Below are positions 3,346 through 54,926 of a stretch of 64,000 nucleotides of DNA, one piece after another (within the stretch, counting starts at the first letter, position 1; each line of letters opens with the position of its first letter). A model generated the notes under the pieces. It saw only the letters and a program-made list of their open reading frames with translations, ran no database searches and was not told the origin of the DNA. Both the position numbers and the translations under genes were made by a program. The stretch is from an uncultured Hormoscilla sp. (GTDB lineage Bacteria > Cyanobacteriota > Cyanobacteriia > Cyanobacteriales > Desertifilaceae). The stretch is from NCBI GenBank assembly GCA_963921275.4, contig OZ001293.3, positions 6,784,001-6,848,000 on the forward strand, given 5' to 3'.

Positions 3346-4398
3346 ATGGAAAAGGACAAGCAAAAAGAAAAGGTTCCCAGTTCACTGCTAACCCTAACGG
3401 CGGGGGTGGTAATCACCCTGGTCAGCCTTTGGTATGGTCAAAATCACGGTCTCATGCCAGAGCAAGTATCGAAACAAGCAGTGCTAGTAGACAATTTCTT
3501 CGACATCATGATGACGATCGGCACCGCCCTGTTTTTGGTAGTGGAGGGGGCCATCTTGATAGCGGTAATTAGGTTTCGTCACCGTAAAGGAGATGACACT
3601 GACGCAGTGCCGATCAAAGGGAACTTGCCCTTAGAAGCATTTTGGACGGCAATTCCGGCTATCTTAGTCATTGGCCTGGGAATCTACAGCGTGCAAGTTT
3701 ACGAAGACATGGGAGGATTTGAGGTCAGCGGTCATCACATGATGGCTGCGGGCGATCGGTCCGCGGACGGCCCGAAAAATCGCGCGATCGCGGCCCCAAT
3801 AGCTGCGGACACAGAAGGAATGATAGCAGAAGCGACAGGGTTGCGTGCCGAACTTGGGTATAAAACCGAGAGCGAGTATGGCTTTGGAGCCAGCCCAGAA
3901 CGGGCAGGCAAAGCGGCGGATGTAGTAGTAAATGTTACAGGCATGCAGTTTTCTTGGGAGTTTGAGTATGAAGATACGGAGGTAGACTCAGCGGACAAAC
4001 TGCACGTGCCATTGGGGAAAGACATACTGCTGAACATCTCCGCAGGTGACGTGATCCACTCCTTCTGGGTACCGCAGTTGCGCCTCAAGCAAGATGCAAT
4101 TCCCGGCAGCGACGCGCAGCTGCGGTTCGTAGCTACCAAGACAGGAACCTACCCCATAGTCTGTGCGGAACTCTGCGGCAGCTATCACGGTATGATGCGG
4201 ACGGAAATGGTGGTAGAAACAGAGGAAGAATACTTAGATTGGTTAGCCGAAGAAAGCATTGCCCTCCAGCAAGATAGTCTTCAAACAGTTGCTGTGAACC
4301 CAGCAGATGCAACCCCATCAGAATTTCTGGCTCCTTACGCGGAAGAAATGGGGATTGATCCCAATATACGAGCAATAATCCACCAGCACAATTCCTGA
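3346..4398 (+). CDS. ctaC: Cytochrome c oxidase subunit II
   Basis: DVIHSFWVPQ and the CuA motif CAELCGSYHGMM; first gene of ctaCDE. Confidence 0.97.
   Translation: MEKDKQKEKVPSSLLTLTAGVVITLVSLWYGQNHGLMPEQVSKQAVLVDNFFDIMMTIGTALFLVVEGAILIAVIRFRHRKGDDTDAVPIKGNLPLEAFWTAIPAILVIGLGIYSVQVYEDMGGFEVSGHHMMAAGDRSADGPKNRAIAAPIAADTEGMIAEATGLRAELGYKTESEYGFGASPERAGKAADVVVNVTGMQFSWEFEYEDTEVDSADKLHVPLGKDILLNISAGDVIHSFWVPQLRLKQDAIPGSDAQLRFVATKTGTYPIVCAELCGSYHGMMRTEMVVETEEEYLDWLAEESIALQQDSLQTVAVNPADATPSEFLAPYAEEMGIDPNIRAIIHQHNS
3755..3778 (+). mobile_element. 24-nt micro-insertion (type C), in frame in ctaC
   Basis: ATCGGTCCGCGGACGGCCCGAAAA, identical to 54507-54530; removing it restores HIP1 GCGATCGC. Confidence 0.8.
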
Positions 4399-4423
4399 GA
4401 AATATTAGCAGTCAAAAAAAGAT

Positions 4424-6118
4424 ATGACAGAAGCGCAGATCAAACCAGAAATTCCCGAAAAGCAGCTTCTTGCTGCCCATTCTGGGCAGCAAGAAGCATG
4501 GAAGTGGTATGACTACTTCACATTCAACACGGACCACAAAGTCATAGGCATCCAATATCTGGTCACCGCCTTCATGTTCTATCTGATCGGCGGTTTGATG
4601 GCGATGGCTATGCGTACCGAACTGTATACTCCCGATTCAGATTTTCTAGATCCGTCACTATACAATGCCTTCCTCACCAACCACGGGACGATCATGATCT
4701 TTCTGTGGATTATCCCTAGTTCTATTGGTGGCTTTGGCAACTTCCTGGTGCCCCTGATGATCGGTGCCAAAGATATGGCCTTTCCTAAGCTGAACGCGAT
4801 CGCCTTTTGGCTAAACCCCCCAGCAGGGACGCTGCTATTGGGCAGTTTCTTCTTCGGGGGCGCCCAAAGTGGGTGGACCTCTTATCCTCCCCTCAGCCTG
4901 ATTACCGCTTCCACGGCGCAGTCGATGTGGATACTCAGCATCGTCCTGGTGGGAACATCCTCGATTTTGGGGTCCCTGAACTTTATCATTACCATTTGGA
5001 AAATGCGGGTTCCGACCATGAATTGGGACCAGCTACCCTTGTTCTGCTGGGCGATATTGGCGACCTCCATGTTGGCATTGGTTTCCACGCCAGTGTTGGC
5101 AGTAGGCATGATTCTGCTGTTGTTCGATATCAACTTCGGTACGAGTTTCTTTCAACCCGACGCGGGAGGTAATGTAGTAGTTTACCAGCATCTGTTCTGG
5201 TTCTATTCCCACCCAGCCGTCTATCTGATGATTCTGCCGATCTTCGGCATCATGTCGGAAGTGATTCCCGTTCACGCCCGCAAGCCGATCTTTGGTTATA
5301 AGGCGATCGCCTATTCGAGTATGGCCATTTGCCTTGTAGGTATGGTAGTCTGGGTTCACCACATGTTTACCAGCGGCACCCCGGCATGGATGCGGATGTT
5401 CTTCACCATCTCCACCCTAATCGTCGCAGTACCCACGGGGGTAAAGATCTTTAGCTGGGTAACTACCCTCTGGGGCGGCAAAATCCGTCTTAACAGTGCC
5501 ATGCTATTCGCCATTGGCTTATTGGCGATGTTCGTCCTGGGGGGACTCAGCGGCGTCACCTTAGGAAATGCGCCCTTCGACATTCACGTCCACGACACCT
5601 ACTATGTCGTTGCCCACTTCCACTACGTTCTGTTTGGCGGATCGGTATTTGGCATTTACGCTGGCATTTACCACTGGTTTCCCAAAATTACGGGGCGGAT
5701 GATGAACGAAACTTGGGGTCGGATTCACTTTGTCCTCACCTTCATCGGCACGAATCTGACCTTCTTGCCCATGCACGAACTGGGTTTGAAAGGAATGCCT
5801 CGGCGGGTAGCGATGTATGACCCCCAATTTGTCAGTCTGAATCAGATTTGTACCTACGGAGCTATTTTACTGGGCTTGTCGGTGATTCCCTTCTTCGTCA
5901 ACGCGATCTGGAGTTGGAGTCAAGGTCCAGTTGCAGGTGACAATCCTTGGCGGGCTTTGACCTTAGAGTGGCAAACCACTTCGCCCCCTGCCATTGAAAA
6001 CTTTGAGGGCATCCCGGTGATATCCTGGGGTCCATACGATTACGGCATGAACCATCTGAACGGCAAGAAACTAACTGGCGAAGTCATAGCCCAAGCAAGT
6101 GCCGCTAGCAAGAATTGA
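4424..6118 (+). CDS. ctaD: Cytochrome c oxidase subunit I
   Basis: WFYSHPAVY, VWVHHMF and VAHFHYV heme/CuB ligand motifs. Confidence 0.99.
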   Translation: MTEAQIKPEIPEKQLLAAHSGQQEAWKWYDYFTFNTDHKVIGIQYLVTAFMFYLIGGLMAMAMRTELYTPDSDFLDPSLYNAFLTNHGTIMIFLWIIPSSIGGFGNFLVPLMIGAKDMAFPKLNAIAFWLNPPAGTLLLGSFFFGGAQSGWTSYPPLSLITASTAQSMWILSIVLVGTSSILGSLNFIITIWKMRVPTMNWDQLPLFCWAILATSMLALVSTPVLAVGMILLLFDINFGTSFFQPDAGGNVVVYQHLFWFYSHPAVYLMILPIFGIMSEVIPVHARKPIFGYKAIAYSSMAICLVGMVVWVHHMFTSGTPAWMRMFFTISTLIVAVPTGVKIFSWVTTLWGGKIRLNSAMLFAIGLLAMFVLGGLSGVTLGNAPFDIHVHDTYYVVAHFHYVLFGGSVFGIYAGIYHWFPKITGRMMNETWGRIHFVLTFIGTNLTFLPMHELGLKGMPRRVAMYDPQFVSLNQICTYGAILLGLSVIPFFVNAIWSWSQGPVAGDNPWRALTLEWQTTSPPAIENFEGIPVISWGPYDYGMNHLNGKKLTGEVIAQASAASKN

Positions 6119-6237
6119 TCTAAGAAACCAGGTAATTCCGGCAACACCTGGTTTCTGGGCTACTGGTTCAGTTGTAGGGTGGGCACCGCCCACCTGACGC
6201 TAGAAATAGCTTAATATTGGAGGAAAGACAAGAAATT

Positions 6238-6867
6238 ATGCAAGGTTCAACGGTAGATCATCCTCAAACACTGCTAGACTCAACGGCCCCTAATCCGGTG
6301 TCAACCCATCACGAGGAACATCCAGATTACCGGGTTTTAGGGTTGCTAGTGTTCCTGATTTCCGAATCTCTCATGTTCGGCGGACTGTTTGCCTCCTATT
6401 TGATTTACAGAGGCGGTGCCGCAACTTGGCCTCCTGAAGGCACGGAGGTAGAACTATTACTGCCTACTATTAACACCATCATTCTGGTTTCCAGCAGTTT
6501 TGTCATTCATAATGGCGATACGGCAATCAAGCAGAATGATGTTTCTCGCATGCGGCTTTGGTATGTTGCTACAGCAATTATGGGCATCATTTTCCTAGGC
6601 GGTCAGGCTTACGAGTATCTAACTCTCGGTTATGGTTTGACTGAAAATGTATTCTCCAACTGCTTCTACCTGATGACTGGCTTCCACGGGTTGCACGTAA
6701 CGGTGGGGGTTTTGCTGATTCTGGGAGTCTTGTGGCGATCGCGCCGTGATGGTCACTATAGCGACACCAAGCATGTGGGGATAGAAATGGCTGAAATCTA
6801 CTGGCACTTCGTAGATATCATCTGGATTATCCTGTTCGCACTCCTGTACATTCTCACCATGTTTTAG
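6238..6867 (+). CDS. ctaE: Cytochrome c oxidase subunit III
   Basis: FLISESLMF, TGFHGLHV and YWHFVD motifs; alternative start at 6217. Confidence 0.97.
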   Translation: MQGSTVDHPQTLLDSTAPNPVSTHHEEHPDYRVLGLLVFLISESLMFGGLFASYLIYRGGAATWPPEGTEVELLLPTINTIILVSSSFVIHNGDTAIKQNDVSRMRLWYVATAIMGIIFLGGQAYEYLTLGYGLTENVFSNCFYLMTGFHGLHVTVGVLLILGVLWRSRRDGHYSDTKHVGIEMAEIYWHFVDIIWIILFALLYILTMF

Positions 6868-7144
6868 AATTAAGAAACCAGGTTTTTATCGAAAACCTGG
6901 TTTCTGGGCTACCATTCGATCGCGCTATACTCCCAAAGAGATTGCGCTGCGCGCACACGGCTACGCCTGCGCTAACGGGGGGACTTCCGGTGTTCCCGAC
7001 AATGGCAGTCAGGGATTCCCCCCTCGATATCTCTGGGGTAGTGCGATTAGCGCGTCCCCTCTGGGGGATATCGAAGCAATGACAATTACAGGAGGCCCCG
7101 AAGCAATTATATACCTCTTTATCTATGCAGCCAGACAAGAGACC

Positions 7145-7714
7145 ATGATAAAAACAGTCCCCAAACCAATGACCCTAGAAGAGTTTCTGGAACAGCCAGA
7201 AACCAAGCCTGCCAGGGAATATCTCGACGATCGCATTATTCAGAAACCAATGCCTCAAGGAAAGCATAGCTTCATTCAATCGGAACTCTTGACAACCATT
7301 AACAGTCTGGCCAAACCCCAGAGTCGGGCTTATGCGTTCCCAGAACTGCGCTGCACCTTTGGAGGACGATCGATCGTTCCCGATGTAGTTGTATTGCGTT
7401 GGGAGAGAATTCCCTCCGACAATCGCGGTGAGGTGGCGAACTCGTTTGAAAGCCATCCCGATTGGACGATTGAAATTTTGTCTCCCGGGCAAAGCCAAAC
7501 TCAGGTCATTAATAAGATTGGACATTGCATAGAATATGGCTGTCAACTCGGGTGGTTAATCGATCCAGAAGAACGATGCGTCTTAGTTTTTTCCCCGGGA
7601 CTAAGCCTAGGAATCTTCTCCAACGACCAAGAGGTTCTGCCAACACCAGACTTTTTAGCAGAACTCGCTCTCACGAGCGATCGCCTGTTCGCTTGGCTGA
7701 AATTGTCGGGTTGA
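7145..7714 (+). CDS. Uma2 family endonuclease
   Basis: MTLEEFL, PMPQGKHS, PDWTIEILSP and GWLIDP motifs. Confidence 0.92.
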   Translation: MIKTVPKPMTLEEFLEQPETKPAREYLDDRIIQKPMPQGKHSFIQSELLTTINSLAKPQSRAYAFPELRCTFGGRSIVPDVVVLRWERIPSDNRGEVANSFESHPDWTIEILSPGQSQTQVINKIGHCIEYGCQLGWLIDPEERCVLVFSPGLSLGIFSNDQEVLPTPDFLAELALTSDRLFAWLKLSG

Positions 7715-7894
7715 GGTGCTGGCCAAATATCGGACAGCCGCTGCGCTAACGGCAGTCCCGAACTTAAGAGCGATCGCCTTTGGGAAGGAACTCCAGCAAT
7801 TCTCTTAGCAATTCCCGTCAATCTGTGCTAGAAGGAAATAAATCCGCTCTCTATTCCTGTCAATCTGGTTAAGTCGTGCCAAATGGGAGGCGGG

Positions 7895-8152
7895 TTACCA
7901 CTTCAGAAACGCTGCACCCGCCACTCCCCGATCGCGCCTAATTTTCCCATCTTTTTCAAACCAGTCAATCACCTGCTGATGGGTGAGATCTTCGACCAGG
8001 ACAGTATCGGCAGCGATCTGCTTCAATAGTCTTAGAGATGAAATCGTCAATCTAGTCAAAAACTTCTCAGAACTAGATAGTAGGGCTTTGTCTACATCTG
8101 CTGACTCTTCTGGGGTTAAAAATTGCGCTGATGGTTGTGGTCCTGCTTCCAT
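7895..8152 (-). CDS. Conserved hypothetical protein (85 aa), copy 1
   Basis: Near-identical to 16889-17146. Confidence 0.8.
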   Translation of the reverse strand: MEAGPQPSAQFLTPEESADVDKALLSSSEKFLTRLTISSLRLLKQIAADTVLVEDLTHQQVIDWFEKDGKIRRDRGVAGAAFLKW

Positions 8153-8205
8153 GAAATTTATACTATTGATATATTTACATTAGCTAGCTTTTAAGTAGCC
8201 GTAGT

Positions 8206-8612
8206 TTATTTACTTTTCCCTACCTGCAATACCTGCATTGCTGTCAAAGGTGACTCTTGACCCAATTCTGACAGCAGCGCCGACGCGATCGCATCATCTC
8301 CGGCAAACACTGCTTCTTCATAAAGTCCTGACACCAGAGTCAATACTGTAATCTGCTCCTGTATCGGGTCAACGATCCAATATTCGGCAATTCGGAGGGC
8401 TTGATATTGCGATCGCTTGTAGCGATAATCTCGGGAAGCATTTTCCTGTCCGGGGCTGACTACCTCTACCACTAACTGCGGCCGTGGCATATCGGGCATC
8501 ACGATCAAACGACTCGCCCCTTCCAATGCTTGCGCTAATTCCTCTGTCAGCACCGCAAAATCTGGGAGTCGCACTGACGATCGCGTCCCACTCACCGCCA
8601 CTTCTATCCCAT
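8206..8612 (-). pseudogene. Uma2 endonuclease C-terminal part, fused out of frame to a DJ-1 fragment
   Basis: Near-identical to the 3' parts of 17618-18238 and 18340-18960; 5' part missing. Confidence 0.85.
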
Positions 8613-8752
8613 TCTCCCCACATATTAGTGAGAAAATCCACACTGGCACCGAGAACCTTAAAGCCAATTTCGTAATAGTCCAGTTCGTGGGTAATGAACT
8701 CTGTTTCAGTCAGCACCGCGACCTTTTTTCCTTGTAGTGCTTTATAGGACAT
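8613..8752 (-). pseudogene. DJ-1/PfpI family protein, N-terminal fragment
   Basis: LQGKKVAVLTETEFITHELDYY...LGASVDF; breaks into Uma2 sequence. Confidence 0.7.
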
Positions 8753-8898
8753 TTTTTTCTTTGACAATTGAGTTTGAGTATCAGCCAGAAACCCGGTTTC
8801 TGGTTACCCTATCAAGCATATATCAATACTCTGACAAGAGAAACCCGGTTTCTTGGCCGACAGTTGCTAAGGTTGCAACTAGAGCTTGGCTTTAGGGT

Positions 8899-18960: not shown

Positions 18961-19341
18961 GCTATCATTCCTCCCATAACCTCAGTTTGGCGATCTTTAT
19001 CAATCATAACCTGCCTCCCGTAGCGCAGCGATCGCCACCAACAATTGCTTGGTAGCGGATATTTCTTGTTCTGCTTCCCTGAAATTTATACTACCGATAC
19101 ATTTACGCCAGCCAAATCCTAACCCGAGTCAGCTTGCTCTTCTGACCGCGCCGAGATCGAATAACCGCACCTATGTTCGCCATCAATAATCCACTGGGTG
19201 CGTTCCACAAGGCAATCTGGCAGCACGGCAGCAAACATCTCCAACTCGTGGCCGCAGACCGTGGGAAAGGAGGAGGCCACGTCGGCAATGGCACAATTAT
19301 GCTCTACCAAGATGAACCGGCTGCTAGGAGCCTTTTCCGAT

Positions 19342-19356
19342 TTTTCCGGAACGGTG
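19342..19356 (-). mobile_element. 15-nt micro-insertion (type A) in sufR
   Basis: CACCGTTCCGGAAAA immediately before ATCGG. Confidence 0.75.
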
Positions 19357-19682
19357 CCATCTGTTTGCACGGGGTGCCACTCGGCCATGTAGCCTTCCGC
19401 TTTTCTCAGTTCGACTAAAGTGGCCACTCGCTCCCGCAATGAACCGGTGCTGAGGCGATCGCGATAGACCTTCGCCTTCCGTTCCCACTGCTTGCGCAGG
19501 ATCGAACTTACCTGGTCTTGTCCTACCGTCTCCGCCAGGGTATCCAGCAGGGACACCGCAAATTCGGCGTGGCTATTGCCGAAGCGATCGCGTCCCTGGC
19601 GACTGAGTTGATAGAGGTACTGGGGGCGTCCCATGGTCTGACCAGTCTCTCCTGGCCACCCCTTCGCTACTTGCTGGTCGAT

Positions 19683-19706
19683 TTTTCGGACCGTCCTCGG
19701 TGCGAT
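19683..19706 (-). mobile_element. 24-nt micro-insertion (type C variant) in sufR
   Basis: ATCGCACCGAGGACGGTCCGAAAA inside a CGATCG target. Confidence 0.75.
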
Positions 19707-19908
19707 CGATCCGGCAGCCTGCAAGTCCTTGAGGTGACGACGGATAGCTTGGGGGCTAATCCCAGATATTGGGCCATTTCCTGAGCCGTTGCTTGACCTT
19801 GCTTGAGCAAATATTGTAGAATGCCTTGTTTGGTGGAGGATTGCTGGGTGGTTGTCATCGTCTTCACAAAACTTTACTTGGCGAACGGCAAAAAAAACTT
19901 GACTTAAA

Positions 19909-19963
19909 CAACACATATGTTACTAAACTATCCTAAGATAGGAGTTAAGCAACAAATAGGTTG
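19909..19963. promoter_or_regulatory. Paired SufR operators
   Basis: CAAC-N6-GTTA at 19909 and CAAC-N6-GTTG at 19950, in the sufR/ftrC-suf divergent intergenic region. Confidence 0.8.
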
Positions 19964-26557: not shown

Positions 26558-26613
26558 GGTTGGCAATTTCAGATGTAGTTAAAATGACTCTGTGTTACAA
26601 TTAAGGTAAATCA

Positions 26614-26895
26614 ATGGAAATTTAGAGCGAGTCTCATACCCGGGAACGGGCGGAAGAACGCGGTACTACTGAAGACGAAATTAGAGATGCGATCCTCACA
26701 GGGTTTTCTATCCTGGGTAAGCGTGGGCGATTGCGCAGCGCGCACGCTTCGCGATTGGGCAAGGGCAAAATCTATGAATTTAACCAAACGAGAAACGGCA
26801 AATACTACGAGGAAAAGCGGGTGGAGGTTTTCTATGTGATCGAGGACAATGTCATAATAACTGTGACAGTATACGTATTTTATGGAAAGTGGTAA
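26614..26895 (+). pseudogene. DUF4258-like toxin with an early stop and a 24-nt insertion
   Basis: MEI*SESHTRERAEERGTTEDEI...VIITVTVY. Confidence 0.7.
26730..26753 (+). mobile_element. 24-nt micro-insertion at GCG^ATTG
   Basis: ATTGCGCAGCGCGCACGCTTCGCG with GCGATTG repeated at both ends; related sequence near 6941. Confidence 0.6.
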
Positions 26896-26896
26896 A

Positions 26897-27240
26897 ATGC
26901 AGATTATCTACAACACCAAGTCAGATTGACTTTACCTGCAGATGAGCGCAAGCAGCAGGTGACTAACCAGGGAAGAAGTTGTGGCGTTGCACAATCACGG
27001 GATGATGGGTCTCTTTGCATAAGTCTTAAACGTAGACTATAAGCCACTTTCAGTTATGTGCAAACAATGACATCATCCCCAAAATGTGCAACAGTTGTCT
27101 TAGATATTGGGGAAAATGATAAGATTGTAGGCATTGAGATTCTGGATGCTTCCCAGAATGTGAATTTGTCAAGTCTGTTGCTGGTGAACCAGGAAGTTGT
27201 TTATCAGAGGATAGATACTCCTGCGATCCAATTAACTTAA
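26897..27240 (+). pseudogene. DUF2283-like antitoxin interrupted by a MITE
   Basis: MQIIYNTKSD... at the 5' end and VVLDIGENDKIVGIEILDAS at the 3' end. Confidence 0.75.
26983..27092. mobile_element. IS1-derived MITE
   Basis: GGCGTTGCACAATCACGGGATGAT...ATCATCCCCAAAATGTGCAAC; AGTTGT repeated on both sides. Confidence 0.8.
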
Positions 27241-30130: not shown

Positions 30131-30162
30131 AATGGATTGACTCCAGTATAATAAAAAACATT

Positions 30163-30332
30163 GGCGTTGCACATTTTTGGGATGATAGCAGCCAATTGTT
30201 GAAAATTTCACTTTGGCTAATTGCTAATTGAAAAAAGTAAATACATCTATTCATGACCCAAAATGACTATCGAGATTAACCTTTGAGTATTAGCAATTAG
30301 CAAGCATTATCATCCCGGAGTTGTGCAACGTC
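30163..30332. mobile_element. IS1-derived MITE
   Basis: GGCGTTGCACATTTTTGGGATGAT / ATCATCCCGGAGTTGTGCAACG ends. Confidence 0.85.
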
Positions 30333-30427
30333 ACATTAAAGTTGGCCTAAGTTGCATGGATATAGCAGCACCGATAGATTTTGCGATCGCTTGAGCACAC
30401 AGGTATGGTAACGTACCCAGAAAAAAA

Positions 30428-30569
30428 CGTTGCACATTTTTGGGATGATAGCAGTCATGGTTGAAAATTGAAAAGCGGTTATTTGTCTATTCATGAACAT
30501 CTATAACTATTTAAATTGACCATTGACAATTAATAATTTTCAACCCTTATCATCCCGGAGTTGTGCAAC
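30428..30569. mobile_element. IS1-derived MITE
   Basis: Same terminal inverted repeats; internal sequence resembles 51215-51375. Confidence 0.8.
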
Positions 30570-34406: not shown

Positions 34407-34759
34407 TTGGCTTTCATCTCAATCAACTTAATCCCATTTCTTCTTTAATTATGCAATGGCGGTAAACTGTGTACAATCTGCTGGGTTTCCAGGCTCACCC
34501 GTACAATACGCTTCACTAGATCCAAGATATAGCGGGGGTCAGAAGACCAGTCGTTGGGGTCGTTGGTGATGCCACTCTTCTTGTCTTTGGTAACTTGGTA
34601 GCGATCCATAATCCACTCAAGGGCAGATCTGTCGCAAACCTTATACTCGTAAGCTTCTAAAGGGATATTCTGAATCTGGATCTTGCTGTTATAGATGATG
34701 GTGGTTTTATCAACCTGACGGTTATGCTTACCAAAGGTCATCTTACTGACTCGATAATC

Positions 34760-34774
34760 TACCGTTCCGGAAAA
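34760..34774 (+). mobile_element. 15-nt micro-insertion (type A)
   Basis: TACCGTTCCGGAAAA^ATCGG; reads DFSGTV in the host frame. Confidence 0.75.
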
Positions 34775-36954
34775 ATCGGTGTACTCCTTCACGGGGTAAG
34801 GTTCGATGGTTTCATAGTTCAGATGCCAGTGGGCTAAGTCTCGTCCCGCTTTACTGAATGTCCAGAAGTCAGCAGCATAGGGGATGCGGGGTAACATTTT
34901 CTTTAAGTCAGCAGCAAAGCGGGTTTTGTATTCAGGACTGTGGAGAATGCCGTAGACGTAATAGAAAATGTCTTCTTTGGTGATGTCCGTGTCGCTGTAA
35001 GTGGTTTGGAAGTCGGTCAGTATTGCATTATGGATGTTCTCGTTGCGGAGGTATTCATCCTGTTTTGCTGTTGCGTTGCCCGGGTCGCGGTAGCGAAAGA
35101 GGTCGCCCAAGTCTGATTGTTGGGTGTAGGTGTAAAGGGGAAAACATTGAGAAGGTGTAAGACAATTAATGTCGAGTAATGTATCCGATACCAAAGCTGA
35201 AAAGTCTTTAGTTGCCCCCAGTCCAGTTACACAAATTGCTAAGTTTTCCTGATTCTCTTTCGGGAAAATCTTAGGCATTTGGGAAGTCCTGTGATTCCAA
35301 TGGTTATTGAAATAAACCCACTGCCGACAATAAGGGCGATATATCCCTTTAACTAAAGAACTAGTTCTAATTGATATGTTATGAATTTTTCTAAATCCTG
35401 CTTAATTCCGCTTGACCAGTTGATTTTTTTCGGATCATTATCAACAAAGTTATCAATACTTGGCTTATCCCCCTTAATGGACTGATACCGTTTAACCTGC
35501 TGATTATAAAAATCAATCATCCTGCCCATGTTAGCGGAAACTGCCTCACGGGAGAAGTTGTAACACCAGGCATCACGACTTGTTTCAAGCCCTCTTGAAT
35601 ATAAATCAAATATCGTCTTAGCTGTTGTATTTGTCTTATCCCCCAGTGAAGTGAATGCTTCAAATGCCGGATCGCGCTGGTTTATCCAGTCATGGTTGTT
35701 GTTGGGATCGATCACCCTCCACTCTATTCCTGTAATACCACCAGACTGAGCAATGATGCTTAACTTCTCCTCACGGCTGAGATAATCTCCAATATCATGG
35801 TAAAGCAATTCACAAGCTCGGGTGTGTTCTGGATTTTTCACCAGTAGGGTGATGGCGATAGTAGCACGGCTTCCAGAGCAAAAAATCTGCCCACCTTCCC
35901 GTCGAGATGTCTCACCGGAGGTGCGCTGATTCCCCCGTAAGTTGAAGCAATAGATCCGGCTAAACTCGTCTACAAAGCATTTTCGCAAGCCATCCATTGC
36001 GTTATTGTCAATAAATGAACCGTTGGTGACGAAACAGATGATGCCTTTGCCCTGGATGCGATCGCTTGCCCAGCGTATTGCCCGAATATAGGAATCATAA
36101 AGGCTGTTTTTGTTGGTAGCAGTCGAGTATTTAGCATAGGTTTCCCTAATGCGGTCATCCAACTGGGGGTATTTCAAATTCTTATTATTGTCATTCTCGC
36201 TACTTTACCCCGCCGAATAGGGAGGATTACCAATAATTACCCGAATCTCTTGCTGTTTCTGACTGACTACCCGTTGGTTATTCTCAGGAAACATCCGATC
36301 CAGTAACGTCCCCTCATTCTCAAACATTTGGAAGGTATCCGTGAGCACAATCCCCTCAAAGGGTTGATATTCCCCGCCATGTAACCCGTGGTAAGTTTCC
36401 TCAATATTGATGGCCGCGATGTAGTAGGCGAGTAGAACAATCTCGTTGGCGTACAACTCCTGCTTAAACTTCCGTTCTAAGTCCTCCGGTTTGATTAACC
36501 CACTTTGCAGTAACCGCGCTATAAACGTCCCCGTTCCCGTGAAGGGGTCAAGGATATGAACGCCTTCATCGCTTAACCCCACTCCCAACTCTTGCCGCAG
36601 GGCCTGGTCAGCACTATTGACAATAAAGTCCACCACCTCAACGGGAGTGTAAACGATTCCCAAGCGATCGGTTAATCGAGGGAATGCCCCCCGGAAAAAC
36701 TTATCATACAGTTCGGTGATAATCTTCTGCTTCCCTTCGGCATTGTCTACCCCGGTGGCCCGTTCTCGGACAGAGTCGTAAAACTTCTCTAACTTGGCGG
36801 TGTCTTTATTTAAGGATTTTCCTTCCAAGACCTCCAGCATGTTCTGCATAGCTTGAGAAACGGGGTTAAGTTCGGTGAAGGCATACCCTTCAAATAAAGC
36901 ATCAAAGACGGGTTTGGTAATCAGATGCTGGGATAACATCTCAATGGCATCATC

Positions 36955-36969
36955 TACCGTTCCGGAAAA
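36955..36969 (+). mobile_element. 15-nt micro-insertion (type A)
   Basis: TACCGTTCCGGAAAA^ATCGG; removal gives NPNVTDDDAIE. Confidence 0.78.
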
Positions 36970-38233
36970 ATCGGTAACGTTGGGGTTGATGTTGCTGTGC
37001 AATCCCGCGAGAAACTCGTCAAAGGCAGCGCGGGGTTTGGCATCTGCACCTGCAAGTAATGCCTGAATGCGGGAGATGTGACCCTCAGCAATTTTCGCTA
37101 CATCTTGGGCCCAATCTTCCCAGTAGCGGCGATCGCCACATTTCTGCACGAGCTTGGCATAAATCGCATCCCGCCATTCTTCCAGTTCCGGAAAATGCAG
37201 TTTCAGTTGCCTGACTTCGGGTAAGTCGGAAGGGCGATCGCCTACGGTTTCTGTATCATCTCTGGGAGTCCCCCCAACACCAATGACATCAATTTCCGGT
37301 GGCCGATTTTTATTAAACTCAATCTTATTGACCATCGCCTTGAAGCGATCGTCATGGGCGCGAAGGGCCTGCAATACTTGCCAGATTACCTTGTATTTCT
37401 GATGATCCTTGAGAGCCTGTTCTGGAGGGATATCAGCCGGAATACCCACTGGTAAAATGATATAACCGTATTTCTTTCCTTCCGATTTTCGCATCACTCG
37501 CCCCACAGATTGCACCACATCCACTACCGAGTTACGGGGGGTGAGGAACATCACCGCATCTAACGCGGGCACATCCACCCCTTCCGAGAGACATCGAGCA
37601 TTAGAAAGAATGCGGCAGGTATTACCACTGGTTTCAGCTTTCAGCCAATCCAGTTTAGCATTGCGTTCTAGGGAGTTCTGGGTTCCATCTACATGATCAA
37701 GCTCACAGTTAAGGATTTCTTCATCAGGATGGGCGGTTTGGTACTGCTCAATGATTTGGGTGAACAGTTGGGTAATGCGTTCAGAGTCTTTAATGGAGCG
37801 AGAAAAGGCAACAGCACGGCGCATGGGAGCATTATCGCCATCTAAAGTTGTGTCCCCTCTACTGGGGGTACCCATCCGCTTGGATAGTCCATTCCAGCAG
37901 CCAGTAATCTTAACCGCATCTTCTAGATTAAGTTCATTATTACGATCCGCTAACTGATGCTGGAATGTGGTACTGACATCCTTTTCATCAACTGCTAACA
38001 CCATCACCCGATAATCAGTGAGTAGTCCTTTACTAACCGCTTCCCCAAATCCCAGATAGTGAAACTCGGGTCCATACAACTGCTCATCATCCATGGAGCA
38101 AATCACAATCTCATTCTCCTGGGCCGTTTTTTTGGCATTATCCCCATACAGTCGGGGAGTAGCAGTCATGTATAGGCGCTTCTTACCCTTGATAAATTCT
38201 TGGTTATGTACCCGCACAAAATAGGATTCTTCT

Positions 38234-39068: not shown

Positions 39069-40605
39069 TCCCCAGATATAGTTGCGCCGGTGGTGCGGTG
39101 GGCTTCATCACAGATAATCAAATCAAACTCAGGTAAACCTTTTGCTTGCGCATCGGCGATCGCCTGAATGGATTGATAGGTGGAGTAAATTACCGTGAGG
39201 TCGCGTTTCCCAGAGAAGTTTTGCACCACATCAGCGATTTTTTGTCCATCAGTGGTGACTGGAATGGGTAAATCTTGGGTAGTGAGATCGCTATTATCAT
39301 CGTTGTTGCGCTTGCGTTTGGCGACCTTAGTATCTGAACATACCGCAATATTGTGAAGACTGACCCCAGCTTCTGCTGTCCATTCTCTGAGGGTTTGAGA
39401 CAGTAAAGAAATTGAAGGCACTAACAACAACACTTGAGCATTTGGTGCAAATTCTTCGGCAATTTTTAACGAAGTAAAAGTTTTCCCCGTTCCACAAGCC
39501 ATCAACAGTTTACCGCGATCGCTTTTCTCAAACCCGGCCATTACATCCTTCAGGGCTTCTCTTTGATGGTCTCGTAGAGTTTTCTTGGGCTTGAGTTGCA
39601 GTTGTTGCGGGTGCTGGAAACTAAAACTACTCCAGTCTATGGTACTCTCTGCTAAATCTTCTACTCGTAGTCGCTGAACTGGAATCTGTTGGTTTTCTAA
39701 TGCCTTTTCAGCATGTTTATTCCAGCGATCGGTAGTGGAGACAATGATTCGACTACTAAACCAAGAAGTTCCGGAAGCTGTAAAGAAGGAATCAATGTGG
39801 TGTTTATCTAGTACAGTATTTGGGGAGTAGAACTTACATTGAATCGCGCAATACTTCCCAGTAGCAGCTTCTGCTGCCACAATGTCAATACCCGTATCAG
39901 ATTGCGTTCCTCGTTTGGGCCAGTCCATCCACAACCAGACATTACTAAAACGACTTTTATATAGAGGATCGTTCGGGAAATAAGTGACCATTAACCGTTC
40001 AAAGCGATCGCCCAAATCACGGTTAGAACTAGCGGCCTCTCTAAATTCCTCTAAAAGATCATGAATTGTGGTAGTCATAGTTAAGATGTAACGTAAGTTG
40101 TTGTGCTGCACTTGAGCCAGCAGCCCCAGGTGATGTTAGTGGAATCAATTGTGACCACAGGGATATGCCAGTGGCTATCATCCAGGAAGGGAACCCCAGG
40201 CTGGATGCCCTCTATTATTGCTGGTAGTCTTCTAAGAAAGCGTCTACCACTACGATTTCGTTTTGGAGATGTTTCATTTTCTGATTTTAGAGATAAATTG
40301 CTTGATGTCAAGTCGGCCTGGCAGTAATGGCCAAAGCGGCTCGCGAAGCACAGGTCGATTACAATTAGCACTAACTGCTTGTCCTTTTGGACCCGGTGTA
40401 GAGCGCATTGTTTCACCGGTTAATGTTCATGTCGCAATGGTGCCATCCACCTCGCTGCCGCTGTCGTCTGGCTTAATTGATGACATGCCCTACTTACCTC
40501 ATCTGTTATTCTATCAGCACGACCTCCAATCTGGAATTGCGCGACTGAGGAAAAGTCGAGTAATTTGGGCCAGTTGTGCTACTTTCCCGAACTCCGGTCG
40601 TTACT

Positions 40606-40833
40606 CAACCCGCACAGTCCACGATCCAACCCGCACAGTCCACGACCCAACCCGCACAGTCCACGATCCAACCCGCACAGTCCACGATCCAACCCGCACA
40701 GTCCACGATCCAACCCGCACAGTCCACGATCCAACCCGCACAGTCCACGATCCAACCCGCACAGTCCACGATCCAACCCGCACTCGTTCCACTCCCCCAG
40801 CACTCGTTCCACTCCCCCAGCACTCGTTCCACT
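40606..40833. repeat. 21-bp tandem repeat (CAACCCGCACAGTCCACGATC) x8.5, then a 20-bp unit x2.6
   Basis: Direct inspection; no spacers between units. Confidence 0.95.
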
Positions 40834-45601: not shown

Positions 45602-45611
45602 GTTTGAACTG

Positions 45612-47953: not shown

Positions 47954-48067
47954 CGGTCTAGCCGAATATTACAACCGGTTAATATATAATTTATCGCCGG
48001 TAGTTACCCTGTTGGAATCTGATTTTTAGCTAATGAGGGGTGATACCCTATAACTAAAATCCTTGCC

Positions 48068-48416
48068 GGCGTTGCACAACTCCGGGATGATAAGGATTGC
48101 TAATTGCTAATACTCAAAGGTTAATCTTGATGGTCATTTTTGGTCATGAATAGATGTATTTACTTTTTTCAATTAGCCAAAGTGCCAAAGTGCAATTTTC
48201 AACGGGGTTGCACAATTACGGGATGATAAGGGTTGCTAATTGCTAATACTCAAAGGTTAATCTTGATGGTCATTTTTGGTCATGAAAGATGTATTTACTC
48301 TTTTCAATTAGCCAAAGTGCCAAAGTGCAATTTTCAACCATTGGCTGCTATCATCCCAAAAATGTGCAACGCCTTTTCAATAATTGGCTGCTATCATCCC
48401 AAAAATGTGCAACGCC
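48068..48416. mobile_element. IS1-derived MITE containing a second copy of itself (48204-48373)
   Basis: Outer target duplication TCCTTGCC; inner TTTTCAA(C/T). Confidence 0.9.
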
Positions 48417-48592: not shown

Positions 48593-48925
48593 TTATCCCG
48601 ATCGATCCGATGGAAAACAGTCATCAAAGGTGACAGCATCGGGGTCGAGAAAACTGGCGATCGCCATTTCCATCACTGCTTCGGGAGGATATTCAATTTC
48701 AGCAGCATGAGAATGAATCCCCTTCTGGAGATAGTAACTAAAGGCAGATCCGGACCTCTCTTCTATTCCTGAAGGCAAATGAGCGATGCCAACAAAACAG
48801 GCGATCGCATATTCAATGACATCTTGAGGATCAAATAATGTGGCCCTAGCATAGAATTCTATTACTTTTTGAACGGGCTCGGAATAAGCATTCCATATCG
48901 GCCTTTGGACATATAAATCTTTCAA
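48593..48925 (-). CDS. Hypothetical protein
   Basis: 110-aa ORF with an internal repeat (PQDVIEYAIACF / PEAVMEMAIASF). Confidence 0.6.
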   Translation of the reverse strand: MKDLYVQRPIWNAYSEPVQKVIEFYARATLFDPQDVIEYAIACFVGIAHLPSGIEERSGSAFSYYLQKGIHSHAAEIEYPPEAVMEMAIASFLDPDAVTFDDCFPSDRSG

Positions 48926-49328
48926 CAGTTATCTCTTCCTTACGAATGCGCAAATCGCCCGATCGCCCGCAAAGAACACAGTTAAGGAGGGCGTATCCTC
49001 TTGTTGGGGGAACGGGGAACGGGGAACGGGAAACAGGAAACTCGCGCGCAGGGGGCGGCGAGGGGATCACCAGCGAACCTGGAAACATCTCAGTCGTGCC
49101 TTATTTTTGGTACTCCCCCAAAGCTACCGATGCGCCCAGTTAAGGAGTCTGGTGGGGGCTACGATTTTCCATAGAGCCCACCACTTTTTAGAGGGCGATC
49201 GACCTTTACAATTGCTATGCAATCAAAAGGGGCAAGCTGCTAAAATTAGGGATTGCTCTTAAAGCTAAACTCACCTTCTTTGAGTTCGTTAATCTTATGC
49301 CATTGCTTGATGGAGGATTCAAGATGGA

Positions 49329-51056
49329 TTATTTTCTGGGAGTACCGTCGCCGCTAGCATCAGCATGCCGAAAGGTTGCGGTCCAAATTCCGTGAAGAGT
49401 GCAGAGGTCGTTAGTTTTGAGAGCACGACCTTGGTAGGGGATAAAGCTACTGGCGTTGCACAACTCCGGGATGATGAGTTATTGCAGATTATAATAATCT
49501 GCAATAACTCATCATAAATTTATAATTAGCATAGGCTGATTTTACACAGGAGTACCAATTAGTGGTATAATGGATATTAAAGCTAATTTAGAATGTCAAG
49601 GAGTTGAATATGAAATGTCCACTCCGGTGCTTCGAAAAAAGTCAATAAAAATGGTCATCTACGTGGCAAACAAAATTTTCTTTGCAAGAATTGTGGCCGC
49701 CAGTTTATTGAACATTATTCTCCACGAGTATATCCGAAAAAAGTGAAAGAAAATTGTTTAAAAATGTACGTTAATGGCAAGGGCTTTCGAGGGATTGAAA
49801 GAATCACTGACGTCAATCATAATACTGTCATCAATTGGGTAAAACAAGTAGCTCAACAAGAGCCTATTCTCCCCGAAAACTATGAGATCCGGTTTCAGAG
49901 ATTGACGAGTTACATACTTATGTAGGTGAAAAAAAGAATAAAAAGTGGTTATGGACAGTTGTTAATCATTTTCAACCTGGAATTATAGCATGGACTTTAG
50001 GAGACCGCCCGGCAGAAACATTTAAGCCATTGTGGGAAATAATAAAAGGCATCATTTTTTTGACGGATGGTTGGCCAGTATATTCAAAGTTTATTGAAGA
50101 TATTGACCAGATAGTGAGTAAAACTTACATGACTCGTGTTGAAGGTGAAAACTGTCGATTAAGACATGATCTCGCTCGATTAAAAAGAAAAACATTGTGT
50201 TCCTCAAAATCCGAAGAAATGTTAATGCTTTCAATTAAGTTACTTTGACAGTATTTACGTTATGATTTCATACCTGTCTATAGTTAAATCATCCCGTAAT
50301 TGTGCAACGCCAAGCTACTCTGTTGGAGGCCATCGGTGTAGTGGGCGATCGCGTTAGCAATAGTGCGCCTAGGGCTACGGGTGTAGGTGCGGATCTGGTC
50401 GAGACTGAGGCCCTTTTGGTGAAGAGCGATAATGGTGTGGATCTTAGGCGATCGTGAGGTCAGTCAAAAAACGGTAGCGGCGCATGATATAGCGTGGCAT
50501 CTCGGGGTAGCTAGCCATAGGTTTGAGAGTTAGTCCAACGCGGGCGGTGGCGATGACGTTGCGGTGGTCGGTGAAGGGGAGAGGACGCAGGTGAAGGGGG
50601 CTGGTGGTGTCGGTGACTGCGGGTACCGATAGTCCAGTCGAGGTCGGCGATCGTGGTGTAACCGGTGTGGCTCTGGATGCGATCTACGCAAAGGGAGCAG
50701 CCATTAACTAGGCTATCGTTAGGTCGGGAGAAGGTGCGGATCAGGATGCCACCAAAAGCACTGGGGTCAGCGCCGAAAGTGATATCCAGACCCTTGAAAC
50801 TGCCGCTTCGGTAGTTGCTACCGTCACGGTGAAAGTACCAGCACCCAGTGGTTTGTTGCATCGGGTCGTGGTGGGCAAACGGGTCGGGATGCTCGGCGCT
50901 GTGATAATAGCATTCAACCTAGACGAGCCTGTGCGCATCACCGTTGATGACTAGCTCCGTCTTGTTAAGTAAGTGCTCTGCGAGATTGGCAAACCAGGAT
51001 TGGCCTATAGACAGGCTAGAGTCTGGGCGATCGAGGCGTGCAAGGGCGGTTTTCAT
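49329..51056 (-). pseudogene. Methylpurine-DNA glycosylase-like hypothetical protein, disrupted by a stop, frameshifts and IS1
   Basis: HRLV*VECYY..HPDPFAH..WYFH..KGLDITFG..GGILIR; reading resumes beyond the IS1. Confidence 0.65.
49452..50311 (+). mobile_element. IS1-family element with degraded insA/insB
   Basis: GGCGTTGCACAA..GGGATGAT inverted ends; 8-bp duplication AAGCTACT; KQNFLCKNCGRQF, TDGWPVY and RVEGENCRLRH motifs. Confidence 0.95.
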
Positions 51057-51123
51057 GGTCACACTGTTCCCTTCCATATTACAAAACGAAGTGCCGAATG
51101 TGGGTTACATTAATTCAACGGCG

Positions 51124-51392
51124 GGCGTTGCACAATCACACCGATGATGGGCATAGTTGGCAGTTGTTTTCAACTTAGACTACAAGCCATTTTCAGTTAT
51201 GCGCAAAAAATGGTGGCGTTGCACAACTCCGGGATGATAAGGGTTGAAAATTGTTAATTGTCAATGGTCAATTGAAATAGTTATAGATGTTCATGAATAG
51301 ACAAATAATGATTTTCAATTTTCAATTTTCAATTTTCAACCATTGACTGCTATCATCCCAAAAATGTGCAACGCCAAAATGGTATCATCCCC
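51124..51392. mobile_element. Older IS1-derived MITE with a younger MITE (51215-51375) inserted
   Basis: Inner duplication AAAATGGT; the outer copy resembles 26983-27092. Confidence 0.85.
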
Positions 51393-51522
51393 CGTGCTAT
51401 GCCTAATTTTGCACAACCACTTAACTACGGCTATGCGATCGGGTAATCGTCCACCGTCATATCCGAGTGCCACCCGTGCCCCCCGAGACCAGATAGCAGA
51501 TCCAACTACTTTCAAATTTCAA

Positions 51523-52239
51523 TTAACAATTTTCAACAACTCCTAGTTCTCGCAAAACATATCCGACTCCTCGGACAGTTTGAATCAAGCGCTGATTCCC
51601 CTGGTCTTCAATTTTGATGCGCAAATAGCGAATATAGACCTCAATCACATTTGATTCTCCCAAAAAGTCGTAACCCCAGACCTGTTCCAAAATCTGTTCC
51701 CGGGTTAATACCTCGCGGGGGGAGGACATCAAGCATTTGAGCAATTCAAATTCCTTCATAGTCAGGTCGATCGCCCGTCCGGCGCGGATAGCTTTGCGGG
51801 TAGTCAAGTCTAGGACCAGGTCGCTAAAGCGTAACTGTTCCGTCTCACTCTTGTCAGGCTGTAAGTAAAGGCGCAGCAGCCTTAAAAGTTCGGAAGTGCG
51901 ATAGGGTTTGAGGAAATAGTCATCAGCGCCTGCTTCCAGACAAGCTACCCGATCGTCCACCCGATCGCGAGCCATCAAAATCAGCATCGGTGTCACATCT
52001 CCCGCCTGACGCAGTTGGCGGCAGAGGTCTAACCCCGAATCTCCTGCCAGCATCCGGTCGATTACAATCAAAGCTGGCTGGAGTTTTCGGGCCAGTTGCA
52101 TACCCGCGATCGCATCAGAGCCCACCACTGGATCGTAACCCGATTCTTTTAAATCCCGACTTATTTCCTCAGCTAGAGTAGGATCGGTTTCAATCAGTAA
52201 AATCGAGGGGGGATGGGAATGGTAGGCAAGGTTCATCAT
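51523..52239 (-). CDS. nblR: OmpR-type response regulator NblR
   Basis: Atypical receiver N-terminus plus SNVIEVYIRYLR wHTH; position downstream of NAD kinase. Confidence 0.82.
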   Translation of the reverse strand: MMNLAYHSHPPSILLIETDPTLAEEISRDLKESGYDPVVGSDAIAGMQLARKLQPALIVIDRMLAGDSGLDLCRQLRQAGDVTPMLILMARDRVDDRVACLEAGADDYFLKPYRTSELLRLLRLYLQPDKSETEQLRFSDLVLDLTTRKAIRAGRAIDLTMKEFELLKCLMSSPREVLTREQILEQVWGYDFLGESNVIEVYIRYLRIKIEDQGNQRLIQTVRGVGYVLRELGVVENC

Positions 52240-52242
52240 CCT

Positions 52243-53169
52243 TTAGGGTAGTTCGACAGAAGTTGGTTTAGCAATATGGGGCAGACCCCAACCTAATTTT
52301 TCTCGGAGAATGCGGAAAAACTCCGGCGATTTTAACCGGATGAAGCGAGCTGTGTAAGGCGATCGCTCTACTAGCACCTCATCTGAGGGCAAAACATAAC
52401 ATCCTGCATTCCCATCTACTACCATCACCAGACGATTAGGAATGACTGGAAAAATTCTCACTGGATCGTTTTGACTAAACACCAAAGCTCGGGAGGCTAG
52501 AGAATGAGGGCAGATCGGCATCAATTGTAGCACCGGCACTCCTGGGGTGACCACTGCTCCTCCCGCGCTCAAAGAATAGGCCGTTGAGCCCGTTGGAGTC
52601 GATACAATCACCCCATCTGCCGCCATATCTACCGGTGTATGATGTCCCACTTGGATTTCAAAATGGCACATACTGGTCAACGGTTCCCGGTGCAGCACCA
52701 TTTCATTCAGGCACAGGGCCTCCCAGATGCAGGTCGAGCCGCGCGACACCTGTACTGTGAGCATCATCCTTTCTTCTATTTCATAATCACCTGCCATAAC
52801 TTTTTCCATGGTGATGGGCAGTTGATTGACATAGGTTTCTGTCAGGAAACCCATGTGACCAGTATTTACCGTTAGCAGCGGGATGTCGCAGGGGGCCACC
52901 TGACGAAAAGCCGACAGCACCGTGCCATCTCCCCCCAGCACCACCCCAAAACTCATCTCCTTACCGAAACCTGGGGGAATTAGCTGCTCTATGGGTGTAT
53001 GGCACACGGCTGCGCCTGGGCGATCGGGTTGAGAATAGCCAAGAATTCCTCCCACACCCGTCGTCACGCAGATATCCCAGCCCAAAGATGTCAGCTGAGC
53101 TTGTAACTCCCTGGCGACGCGACAAGCTACTGGTTTGATTTCGTTATATATTATCCCAGCTTTGGGCAC
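52243..53169 (-). CDS. nadK: NAD(+) kinase
   Basis: LGGDGT, LNE and [14 protein letters not shown] motifs. Confidence 0.97.
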
Positions 53170-53199
53170 GCTACCTACTACTCCTTGGGTTAAATCTGA

Positions 53200-54177
53200 C
53201 TAAAAACGAGATTTTAACGGCGTCTTTTTTGGCTTTTTGTTTTTCTGGCGCTGGTAATCTAATTCCTTCAGTTTCTGCAAAATGCGGCTGAAGTATTCTT
53301 GCATATAGGATTTGGTGGTTGTCGTTTCCGACGGGTCTAGTCCAAAGGTGCTGTATACTTCTTCCATAGAAGCACTCAGGGGTTTACCAGAACAGAGCAC
53401 TTCAGCAAAGGCCAATCGGTCAGCTACATTCCACGTCCACTGGAAAAACCGGGCCATTTGGCGCATCACACGCAAGAATGAAAGCGGCATCCGCGCTATC
53501 TTTGCCTCCCGATCGCTCAGTTTTTCGCATAAACGGATGATCTCATACCCGCTCATCGCCTGGGGACCTACAACTGGGAATGTTTTGCCTGCCGTTTCTG
53601 GAACCGTAAGGGCATGTACTGCGAACTTAGCGATGTCGATCGCATCCATAAAGGCAATTGGCGAAGCCTCACCGGTTACCCAAACCGTCTGATTCTCCAG
53701 GATGGGAATAGCGTATTGACTGACCAAGCCTTGCATAAAGCCTGCCAGCCGCAGCACCGTGTAATTCAGACCTGATTGTGCCAACAATATTTCCGTACAC
53801 CGTTTAATCTCCATTAATGGTACCTGTCGATACTTTTCGGCGTCCAGAATCGAGAAAAATATAAACCGGTCCACCCCCGCTGCTTTGGCTGCTTGAATTA
53901 GCGCCACCTTTCCTTCCCAGTCTACTTGTTTCACGCTCAGGGAATCTGTCGGTCGGGCCGTAGCTGCATCAATCACAGCCGTAATCTCCTCCAAGGCCGG
54001 AGGTAGACTTTTAGGGTCGCACAAGTTCCCCCGGACCAGTTCTGCTCCCCATTCTTTCAAAAATGCTGCCTTTCGGGGACTCCGCACTAGACAGTGGACT
54101 TGATAGCCCTCGTCTAGGGCCCTACGAGTCACCTGTCTTCCTAAGGTTCCAGTGGCACCTACAACCAATAAGCTCAT
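53200..54177 (-). CDS. ycf39: Ycf39 NAD(P)-binding PSII assembly factor (atypical SDR)
   Basis: GATGTLGRQ, AFLKEWGAEL and WNVADRLAF motifs. Confidence 0.93.
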   Translation of the reverse strand: MSLLVVGATGTLGRQVTRRALDEGYQVHCLVRSPRKAAFLKEWGAELVRGNLCDPKSLPPALEEITAVIDAATARPTDSLSVKQVDWEGKVALIQAAKAAGVDRFIFFSILDAEKYRQVPLMEIKRCTEILLAQSGLNYTVLRLAGFMQGLVSQYAIPILENQTVWVTGEASPIAFMDAIDIAKFAVHALTVPETAGKTFPVVGPQAMSGYEIIRLCEKLSDREAKIARMPLSFLRVMRQMARFFQWTWNVADRLAFAEVLCSGKPLSASMEEVYSTFGLDPSETTTTKSYMQEYFSRILQKLKELDYQRQKNKKPKKTPLKSRF

Positions 54178-54295
54178 GAGGTAATTTATTACAAATCGTT
54201 AACTTTTGATAAGATTTTATCATAAATCTTTACATTACGGAGATCGATCTCCAGGAGCCTACTTGCCACCAGCAGTATAAAGATACCAATATAAT

Positions 54296-54328
54296 CCTAG
54301 GGCAGCGGTTTAAATCACTGCCCCTAGG
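54296..54328. terminator. Hairpin, possible terminator
   Basis: CCTAGGGCAG...CTGCCCCTAGG. Confidence 0.45.
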
Positions 54329-54452
54329 CCCTAATTTACTTTAGCTGCGCATCTTTTCTCTGAGCAATGCTTAATGCCCTATATACATGGAGTATGCTGC
54401 GGTAATTAATCTCATATCTGTAGTTTATCAAAATATAACTAGTGATTAAATT

Positions 54453-54926
54453 ATGTCCGATTTTTCCGGAACGGTGCCTGAAGTAATTAAGTATCGACAG
54501 CTGCCGATCGGTCCGCGGACGGCCCGAAAAATCGCGTCGTCAGGTGGTGAGGCCCCTAACTGTGAGGTGCAGCATCCGGTGGATCTCGCGAACGTCCGCC
54601 AGCTACACTCCAAGCTGCTGCCGGTGGAAAAAGCCCAGCGGATGGCTGAGTTTTTCAGCTTGATGGGAGATGCCAACCGTTTGCGCATTCTATCGGTGTT
54701 GGCAATACGGGAACTCTGTGTCTGCGATTTGGCAGGATTGATTAAAATGAGTGAATCGGCGGTCTCCCATCAACTGCGAGTTTTGCGCTCAATGGGCCTG
54801 GTTAACTATCGCAAGCAGGGACGGAATGTTTTTTACTCTCTCTCGGACAGCCACGCGCTCAATATTTACCGGGAACTGCTTTCCCATCTCGATTTTTCGC
54901 GCAGCGTTCGACTGCCAGACACTTAG
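54453..54926 (+). CDS. ArsR/SmtB family metal-sensing repressor carrying three micro-insertions
   Basis: ELCVCDLA and SESAVSHQLR motifs; insertions at 54462-54476 (A), 54507-54530 (C) and 54894-54908 (B). Confidence 0.92.
   Translation: MSDFSGTVPEVIKYRQLPIGPRTARKIASSGGEAPNCEVQHPVDLANVRQLHSKLLPVEKAQRMAEFFSLMGDANRLRILSVLAIRELCVCDLAGLIKMSESAVSHQLRVLRSMGLVNYRKQGRNVFYSLSDSHALNIYRELLSHLDFSRSVRLPDT

Follow-up and report, generated by a model that had tools for sequence, protein, structure and literature searches.

Mobile 24-nucleotide hairpin elements in a Hormoscilla genome share a cut before TCG(G) with shorter sister elements

Elements and host genes at the locus

The window analyzed here, a stretch of 64,000 nucleotides (nt) from an uncultured Hormoscilla sp. 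(assembly GCA_963921275.4, contig OZ001293.3, positions 6,784,001 to 6,848,000), contains short hairpin elements of 24 nt, several of them within protein-coding genes, that are present or absent at orthologous sites of related genomes. The host genes are ctaC/coxB (3346-4398, plus strand, TIGR02866), sufR (listed open reading frame (ORF) 19119-19916, minus strand, with an ortholog-shared start at 19858, TIGR02702), and an ArsR/SmtB regulator gene, referred to as smtB (54453-54926, plus strand, NF033788). All three were confirmed by profile matches to CoxB/CtaC, SufR_cyano, and ArsR/SmtB.

The original prediction, made from the window alone, described one 24-mer twice, at 3755 and at 54507, together with a variant on the minus strand (19683-19706) and a further 24-mer at 26730, all of which were verified. 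In the register of the cut CGA^TCG, taken from non-palindromic sites, the ctaC copy is a T-start element at 3756-3779 (plus strand) that adds eight amino acids in frame. The identical copy at 54508-54531 (plus strand) lies, also in frame, at the N-terminus of the ArsR/SmtB gene, and the sufR variant occupies 19682-19705 (minus strand) in the target TCGA^TCGA. The element at 26731-26754 (plus strand) had been grouped with the other three; it belongs to a separate sequence family, 24C, which ends in CGCGA rather than GAAAA and follows the same cut rule. Ten sister elements of 15 nt are also found in the window, including two of family 15A, one at the start of smtB (54461-54475, minus strand) and one that exemplifies a Y^TCGG site (34761-34775, plus strand).

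A degenerate 24-mer pattern matches three times in the window, while three or more matches occurred in 0 of 100 shuffles (shuffle mean 0.00). The predicted hairpin, TCG..CCG-NGGA-CGG..CGA, folds as described, but it outperforms shuffled sequences on the bottom strand only (z of -2.4, compared to -0.9 on the top strand). Stem variants of the A·pyrimidine type retain the hairpin, with T.C, C.T, or A-T at one pair, and fall into few haplotypes.

Filled and empty alleles

The genome under study (G000) was compared with four genomes of the same genus, the outgroup G001 as well as G002, G003, and G004. The comparison covered 2.4 of the ~6.4 Mb of G002 and up to 30 loci per pattern search for each of the others. 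The ctaC site is without the element in three of four relatives (G001, G002, and G004), and the sufR site is empty in all five orthologous loci from the four genomes. At the smtB site, the outgroup is empty and the other three genomes are filled. At 26730, G002 lacks the element, which G003 and G004 both carry. On ortholog alignment, the check suggested with the original prediction, all four sites have an empty counterpart in one or more genomes of the genus, against which the element appears as a 24-nt insertion. Of 60 comparisons with orthologs, 39 showed an empty site, 8 a filled one, and 13 could not be resolved, and the inserted length was 24 nt at every compared site. The 24-mers are real mobile insertions.

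Some of these loci have further peculiarities. A hint of recombination between the compared genomes comes from the region around the sufR insert (19560-19916), where G000 is nearer to the outgroup than to G003, elsewhere the closer of the two. A G run in the same gene (19820-19825, minus strand) is one base short relative to all five orthologous loci, so that the frame shifts after 19858, and an upstream ATG at 19916 opens a frame through the remaining gene; the shortened run may be an assembly error. In smtB of G002 and G004 (loci L035 and L036), a 69-nt long-stem hairpin is nested within the 24-mer, and similar hairpins of 63-69 nt are polymorphic at other loci. Long-stem hairpins of 36-48 nt, many ending in ATCGAA, form a second superfamily that is polymorphic between G000 and G002 and uses other targets. 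The small gene that holds the 24C element (26613-26896) appears frameshifted both here and in relatives.

Cut position and length classes

Element boundaries are ambiguous at CGATCG sites because ATCG stands at both junctions. The cut was resolved with a de novo indel catalogue of G000 against 2.0 Mb of G002 and, as a second source, with 97 ungapped filled/empty pairs from the 2.4 Mb of G002 and the loci of G001, G003, and G004. Sites without GATC, where insert length equals element length, fix the cut at X^TCGG. Elements of 15, 22, 23, and 24 nt, along with rarer ones of 27-43 nt, lie directly before TCG(G) with no target duplication, and the N^TCG(G) cut is common to six families of 15-24 nt. 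The original prediction had assigned the 24-mers to the same insertion machinery as the 15-mers. Because the cut before TCG(G) is common to all lengths, this link holds as far as the anatomy of the junctions goes, where both the right junction and the cut position are shared; that a common enzyme lies behind it goes a step further and is plausible.

Inserts are found in both orientations relative to host genes, and their lengths within genes are constrained. Long open frames are kept at 94 of 344 sites with triplet-length elements vs 3 of 69 sites with 22/23-mers (p = 8e-6; long-open-frame controls ~40%). This retention of multiples of three is in line with the prediction, and it shows that non-triplet lengths are purged from genes. 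The count of GCG-Nx-ATCGC by insert length, also proposed with the prediction, was uninformative: genome-wide it has no peak at 15 or 24, and background together with codon periodicity swamps the signal.

Target preference and junction bases

The families differ in what they require to the left of the cut. T-start 24-mers rebuild CGATCG at 66 of 82 independent sites, and 36 of these 66 targets are CGATCGG (19% expected, p = 2e-10). The 15-mers have C or T on the left at 207 of 223 sites, mostly as Y^TCGG, and families 15A, 22A, and 23A as well as the A-start 24-mer mostly use [CG][CT]^TCGG. GA stands on the left at 83 of 113 sites for the 24-mer vs 15 of 223 for 15A. A target-hairpin model, in which the left flank pairs with the right flank, was rejected, as no family had consistent covariation.

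The terminal bases of the elements vary with the flanks. The 24-mer starts with T at 81 of the 83 sites that have GA on the left and with A at 23 of the 25 that have Y there (p = 5e-20), and the T starts in 15A, 15B, and 24C are nearly all found after GA. At the opposite end, families ending in CGCGA frequently have A as the base after the element (19/101 for 22A). Eight such filled alleles could be paired with an aligned empty ortholog, in which the corresponding base was T in six, G in one, and poorly aligned in one. The T of the empty allele in six of eight pairs therefore indicates overwriting of a target base, an outcome not expected from a clean cut-and-join. Within 24C, the haplotype with G as last base and A as next base has a T start in 0 of 15 GA-left sites vs 38 of 71 for A-ending copies (p = 7e-5), and the A/T junction variation recurs in 24C copies of other genera. 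Near-junction differences that could be polarized ran toward the consensus in the filled allele in three of three cases. This pattern suggests that junction bases are inherited from donors and are able to overwrite the target, and the A/T swaps at both junctions are likely to stem from a copied single strand that brings flank bases with it. A general overwriting of right flanks was considered and set aside, being weak against motif-matched controls.

Copy number, vehicles, and distribution

The genome holds 88 copies of the 24-mer within five mismatches. Most reside inside ~12 copies of an ISKra4-like element, which carries up to five in-frame 24-mer inserts; 33 independent sites remain. A version with five in-frame 24-mers lies at G000:C1:5040371-5041740, and its copies are 98.8-100% identical, some with an additional insert of ~930 bp. 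Neither G000 nor the compared 2.4 Mb of G002 yielded an ISKra4-like copy without 24-mers, and the loaded element has kept spreading. As an autonomous partner it was rejected: it makes 8-nt duplications and serves as a vehicle only.

Of 301 genomes of the order, five have exact matches to the degenerate 24-mer pattern (76, 141, 12, 56, and 30 matches); these five belong to one genus, and the insertion sites differ in each of them. Viral contigs gave 0 matches. The 24C-related pattern (at most two mismatches) is more widespread, with 26 of 201 genomes and 17 genera. Exact matches to the degenerate 24C form, among the matches listed, come from Nostoc, Nodularia, Anabaena, Calothrix, and Scytonema records as well as from Moorena, Symploca, Coleofasciculus, and Arthrospira records. 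Hormoscilla itself is placed by NCBI taxonomy in Gomontiellales, not Nostocales. A weak indication of placement comes from a comparison with 80 of 122 named loci, in which a Hormoscilla record gave the longest match to the genome (76% over 262 nt). The window stretch is also present in sponge metagenomes.

Mechanism of insertion

The account favored here, and held tentatively, is that these are non-autonomous micro-elements that would be copied in as single-stranded hairpins with short donor arms, annealing at TCG(G) with the help of a borrowed enzyme. The intermediate would be a short single-stranded hairpin of DNA or cDNA that carries a few donor flank bases. Its arms would anneal at the target, aided by an enzyme encoded elsewhere, and the product would be an insertion just before TCG(G) without target duplication. 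The T-start form reads CGATCGG in its donor context, which is also its preferred target and the place where the left arm would anneal; this identity of arm and target would explain why the T-start form concentrates at CGATCGG and not at HIP1, a palindromic octamer (GCGATCGC) with CGATCG at its core. Group II intron reverse transcriptases (RTs) are the leading candidate for making the strand. They are reported to template-switch on one base pair and to add non-templated bases (10.1101/792986), and G000 bears an unusually heavy load, with 93 RT-domain matches and >300 group II intron 5′ ends.

Several observations weigh against this account. The A-start forms have a strict, strand-specific target and next to no fixed homology on the left side, as would be expected of recognition by a protein more than of annealing. 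Right-flank mismatches in empty alleles exceed motif-matched controls by little: 8/27 vs ~15% (p = 0.04), and 16/49 vs ~24% (p = 0.11) in the second comparison. The A/T swaps could instead have arisen after insertion, through changes at the foot of a cruciform, given that one orthologous site has A as first base in G003 and T in G004. The analysis found neither an intermediate nor a transcript nor a helper gene; in the RNA run X9, no contig covered the insertion point. Finally, the group II introns of this genome use other targets, and their abundance alone shows nothing.

A broader version of the single-stranded account, which is unlikely, places the elements in a cyanobacteria-wide class of 15-25-nt "oligonucleotide transposons" that would lack a transposase of their own and whose target would be chosen by terminal bases and inherited arms. 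If this is true, a single-base swap, from an A start to a T start, redirects one and the same hairpin from Y^TCGG sites to CGA^TCGG sites.

Alternative mechanisms

Among the rivals, single-strand "peel and paste" performed in trans by an HUH (Y1/RAYT) enzyme fares best and is possible, if less probable than annealing of a copied strand. Read on the bottom strand, the element lies 3′ of YCGA with an imperfect hairpin and a similar tetranucleotide end, as at IS200/IS605 ends. The fixed, short, one-sided target without duplication fits this mechanism, as do the conserved stem mismatch, the stronger fold on one strand, and the presence of two Y1 genes in the genome; an IS200-like mechanism has also been proposed for REPINs (PMC3116915). 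However, the two Y1 genes have other REP families, and not the 15-24-nt elements, on their flanks, each element has a single hairpin, whose stem is just 3 bp in the 15-mers, and overwriting of a target base is not expected. No bias in orientation along the chromosome emerged from 437 sites (permutation p = 0.9), in a genome with weak GC skew where rearrangement could hide a bias. No large insert with these element ends was seen among the displayed part of 250 indels. The RAYT-like Y1 genes are located at G000:C1:241795 and 1348544, each with its own flanking REP array.

Strict target-primed reverse transcription is a weaker, distinctly doubtful alternative, in which a CCGA-3′ nick would serve as primer on a short RNA with an A tail, the A/T junctions arising by non-templated addition. 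Three families end in A5 beside the target, RT genes are very abundant, and the behavior reported for group II intron RTs, namely template switching and non-templated addition (10.1101/792986), would suit it. The nearly invariant tail length, the lack of a tail in the CGCGA-ending families, and the occurrence of both orientations relative to host genes argue against it. To our knowledge, no endonuclease for the CCGA nick site has been described.

HIP1 as a target

The original prediction viewed HIP1 as a landing pad, with elements inserted inside HIP1/CGATCG cores of ctaC, sufR, and smtB. Excision from ctaC does regenerate HIP1 on paper, but the actual empty alleles of G002 and G004 are GCGATAGC, with the outgroup likewise carrying A at the base that differs from HIP1; as reconstructed from these alleles, the ancestral ctaC site was GCGATAGC and not HIP1. 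Excision gives TCGATCGA in sufR and CCGATCGC in smtB, neither of which is HIP1.

It is very unlikely that the insertion machinery recognizes HIP1 or its methylated core as a dedicated landing pad, and for the full octamer the idea is largely refuted. The frequent rebuilding of CGATCG by the T-start form, which needs CGA on the left, is what such a pad would produce, and 24C copies of other genera rebuild HIP1 at 12 of 15 CGATCG-type sites (with the junction base set to T and no background rate). In addition, the genome has 18 C5-methylase matches, and SDR5, one of the small dispersed repeats (SDRs), is reported within HIP1 (PMC4390886). HIP1 makes up 16 of the 82 T-start sites, compared to 4.9% of TCG sites; this fourfold excess over random TCG arises because HIP1 contains CGATCG. 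Relative to other CGATCG sites, the full octamer is under-used, with 16 of 66 in the T-start form against 22.9 expected (p = 0.09); two sister families have it at 3 of 31 CGATCG sites apiece (p = 0.002 for either), and it is absent from 212 target sites of the 15-mers. Most sister families as well as the A-start form avoid GATC altogether, and no methylase was assigned to CGATCG in this genome. HIP1 is an incidental bystander target, and none of the results bears directly on HIP1 function, as the prediction had anticipated they would.

The reverse effect, creation of HIP1 by insertion, is small. Element junctions of the sister families newly made 122 CGATCG and 28 HIP1 sites in this genome, i.e., 122/13721 and 28/4754, both <1%. 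A "HIP1 ratchet", in which the first base changes from A to T after insertion, was rejected, as T starts are common in 24C yet create no site.

Least tenable of all is a non-mobile origin by local duplication, quasi-palindrome mutation, or assembly artefact, which, despite ATCG(G) at both junctions of the T-start form and probable homopolymer errors in the assembly, is refuted by the filled/empty pairs and is at odds with one 24-mer recurring at dozens of unrelated positions, different ones in different genomes, with filled junctions in independent sequencing runs (X1 and X4), and with one X7 contig across the stretch (with 24 gap letters), leaving it a negligible probability.

Neighboring features

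A type ISP restriction-modification gene (34445-38217) is broken into several ORFs and contains 15-nt elements at 34761 and 36956. A repeat of ~120 nt with inverted ends, resembling miniature inverted-repeat transposable elements (MITEs), occurs at 26973-27092, 30153-30569, 48058-48416, and 51205-51377, and its polymorphic copies outside the window carry 8-nt duplications. Two 21-nt tandem arrays are located at 40564-40815 and 61572-61823.

Comparison with known systems

A literature search, whose scope excluded most subscription papers, listed no publication describing these families. Bacterial MITEs are described as 70-300 bp long with terminal inverted repeats (PMC3733652). The present elements resemble them in being non-autonomous, dispersed, and structured; they differ from the MITE-like inserts of this genome, which have 8-9-nt duplications, whereas the 15-24-nt elements have none. 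With REP/REPINs and IS200/IS605 derivatives, as these are portrayed in PMC3116915 and PMC3733652, they share a short imperfect noncoding hairpin, the lack of target duplication, and occasional in-frame insertion. Similar to non-autonomous IS200/IS605 derivatives, they insert 3′ of a short fixed target (YCGA^ on the bottom strand), but they have a single hairpin rather than two subterminal ones, and their junction bases swap. In contrast to the REP/REPIN-RAYT system, they bear no GTAG or CGTC tag, occur as single copies and not doublets, and lie away from both Y1 genes.

Elhai et al. (2008) reportedly defined the small dispersed repeats SDR1-8 of Nostocaceae, including the HIP1-associated SDR5, as a class said to span ~21-27 nt with conserved secondary structure and a covarying stem. 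How repeats of ~20 bases move has been an open question since that description. The hundreds of young insertions found here can be set against empty alleles, obey a precise cut rule, and show junction swaps that tell candidate mechanisms apart, and the question of mobility therefore becomes testable. The families also lengthen core proteins by 5-8 residues. Interest now centers on the mechanism of mobility and on the junction rule; the purpose of HIP1 is not explained by the elements.

SDR5, a little-studied repeat, as described in later papers and compared on those descriptions rather than by sequence, is the closest known system. It is characterized there as a 21-nt repeat tied to HIP1 in heterocystous cyanobacteria, with function unknown (PMC13756078), and as inserted between nt 3 and 4 of HIP1 (PMC4390886), while PMC5861425 is cited here for the statement that no SDR-like repeats are reported outside Nostocaceae. 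The 24-nt elements resemble SDRs in their small size class (21-24 nt), in being dispersed (33 independent genome sites), and in mobility evidenced by filled and empty orthologous sites. Insertion at the HIP1 core center is likewise precise, the cut reported for SDR5 equaling GCGA^ within the one-base ambiguity. The sister family 24C, given its presence in the Nostoc, Nodularia, Anabaena, Calothrix, and Scytonema records, is the bridge to Nostoc SDRs. The differences are (i) length, 21 nt in SDR5 vs 24 nt here, (ii) target, the present elements favoring CGATCGG or Y^TCGG with HIP1 at 16/82 T-start sites, and (iii) host, since they are found outside Nostocaceae. Thus, the 24-mers behave like an SDR while departing from SDR5 in length and HIP1 preference, and they extend SDR-like elements beyond Nostocaceae.

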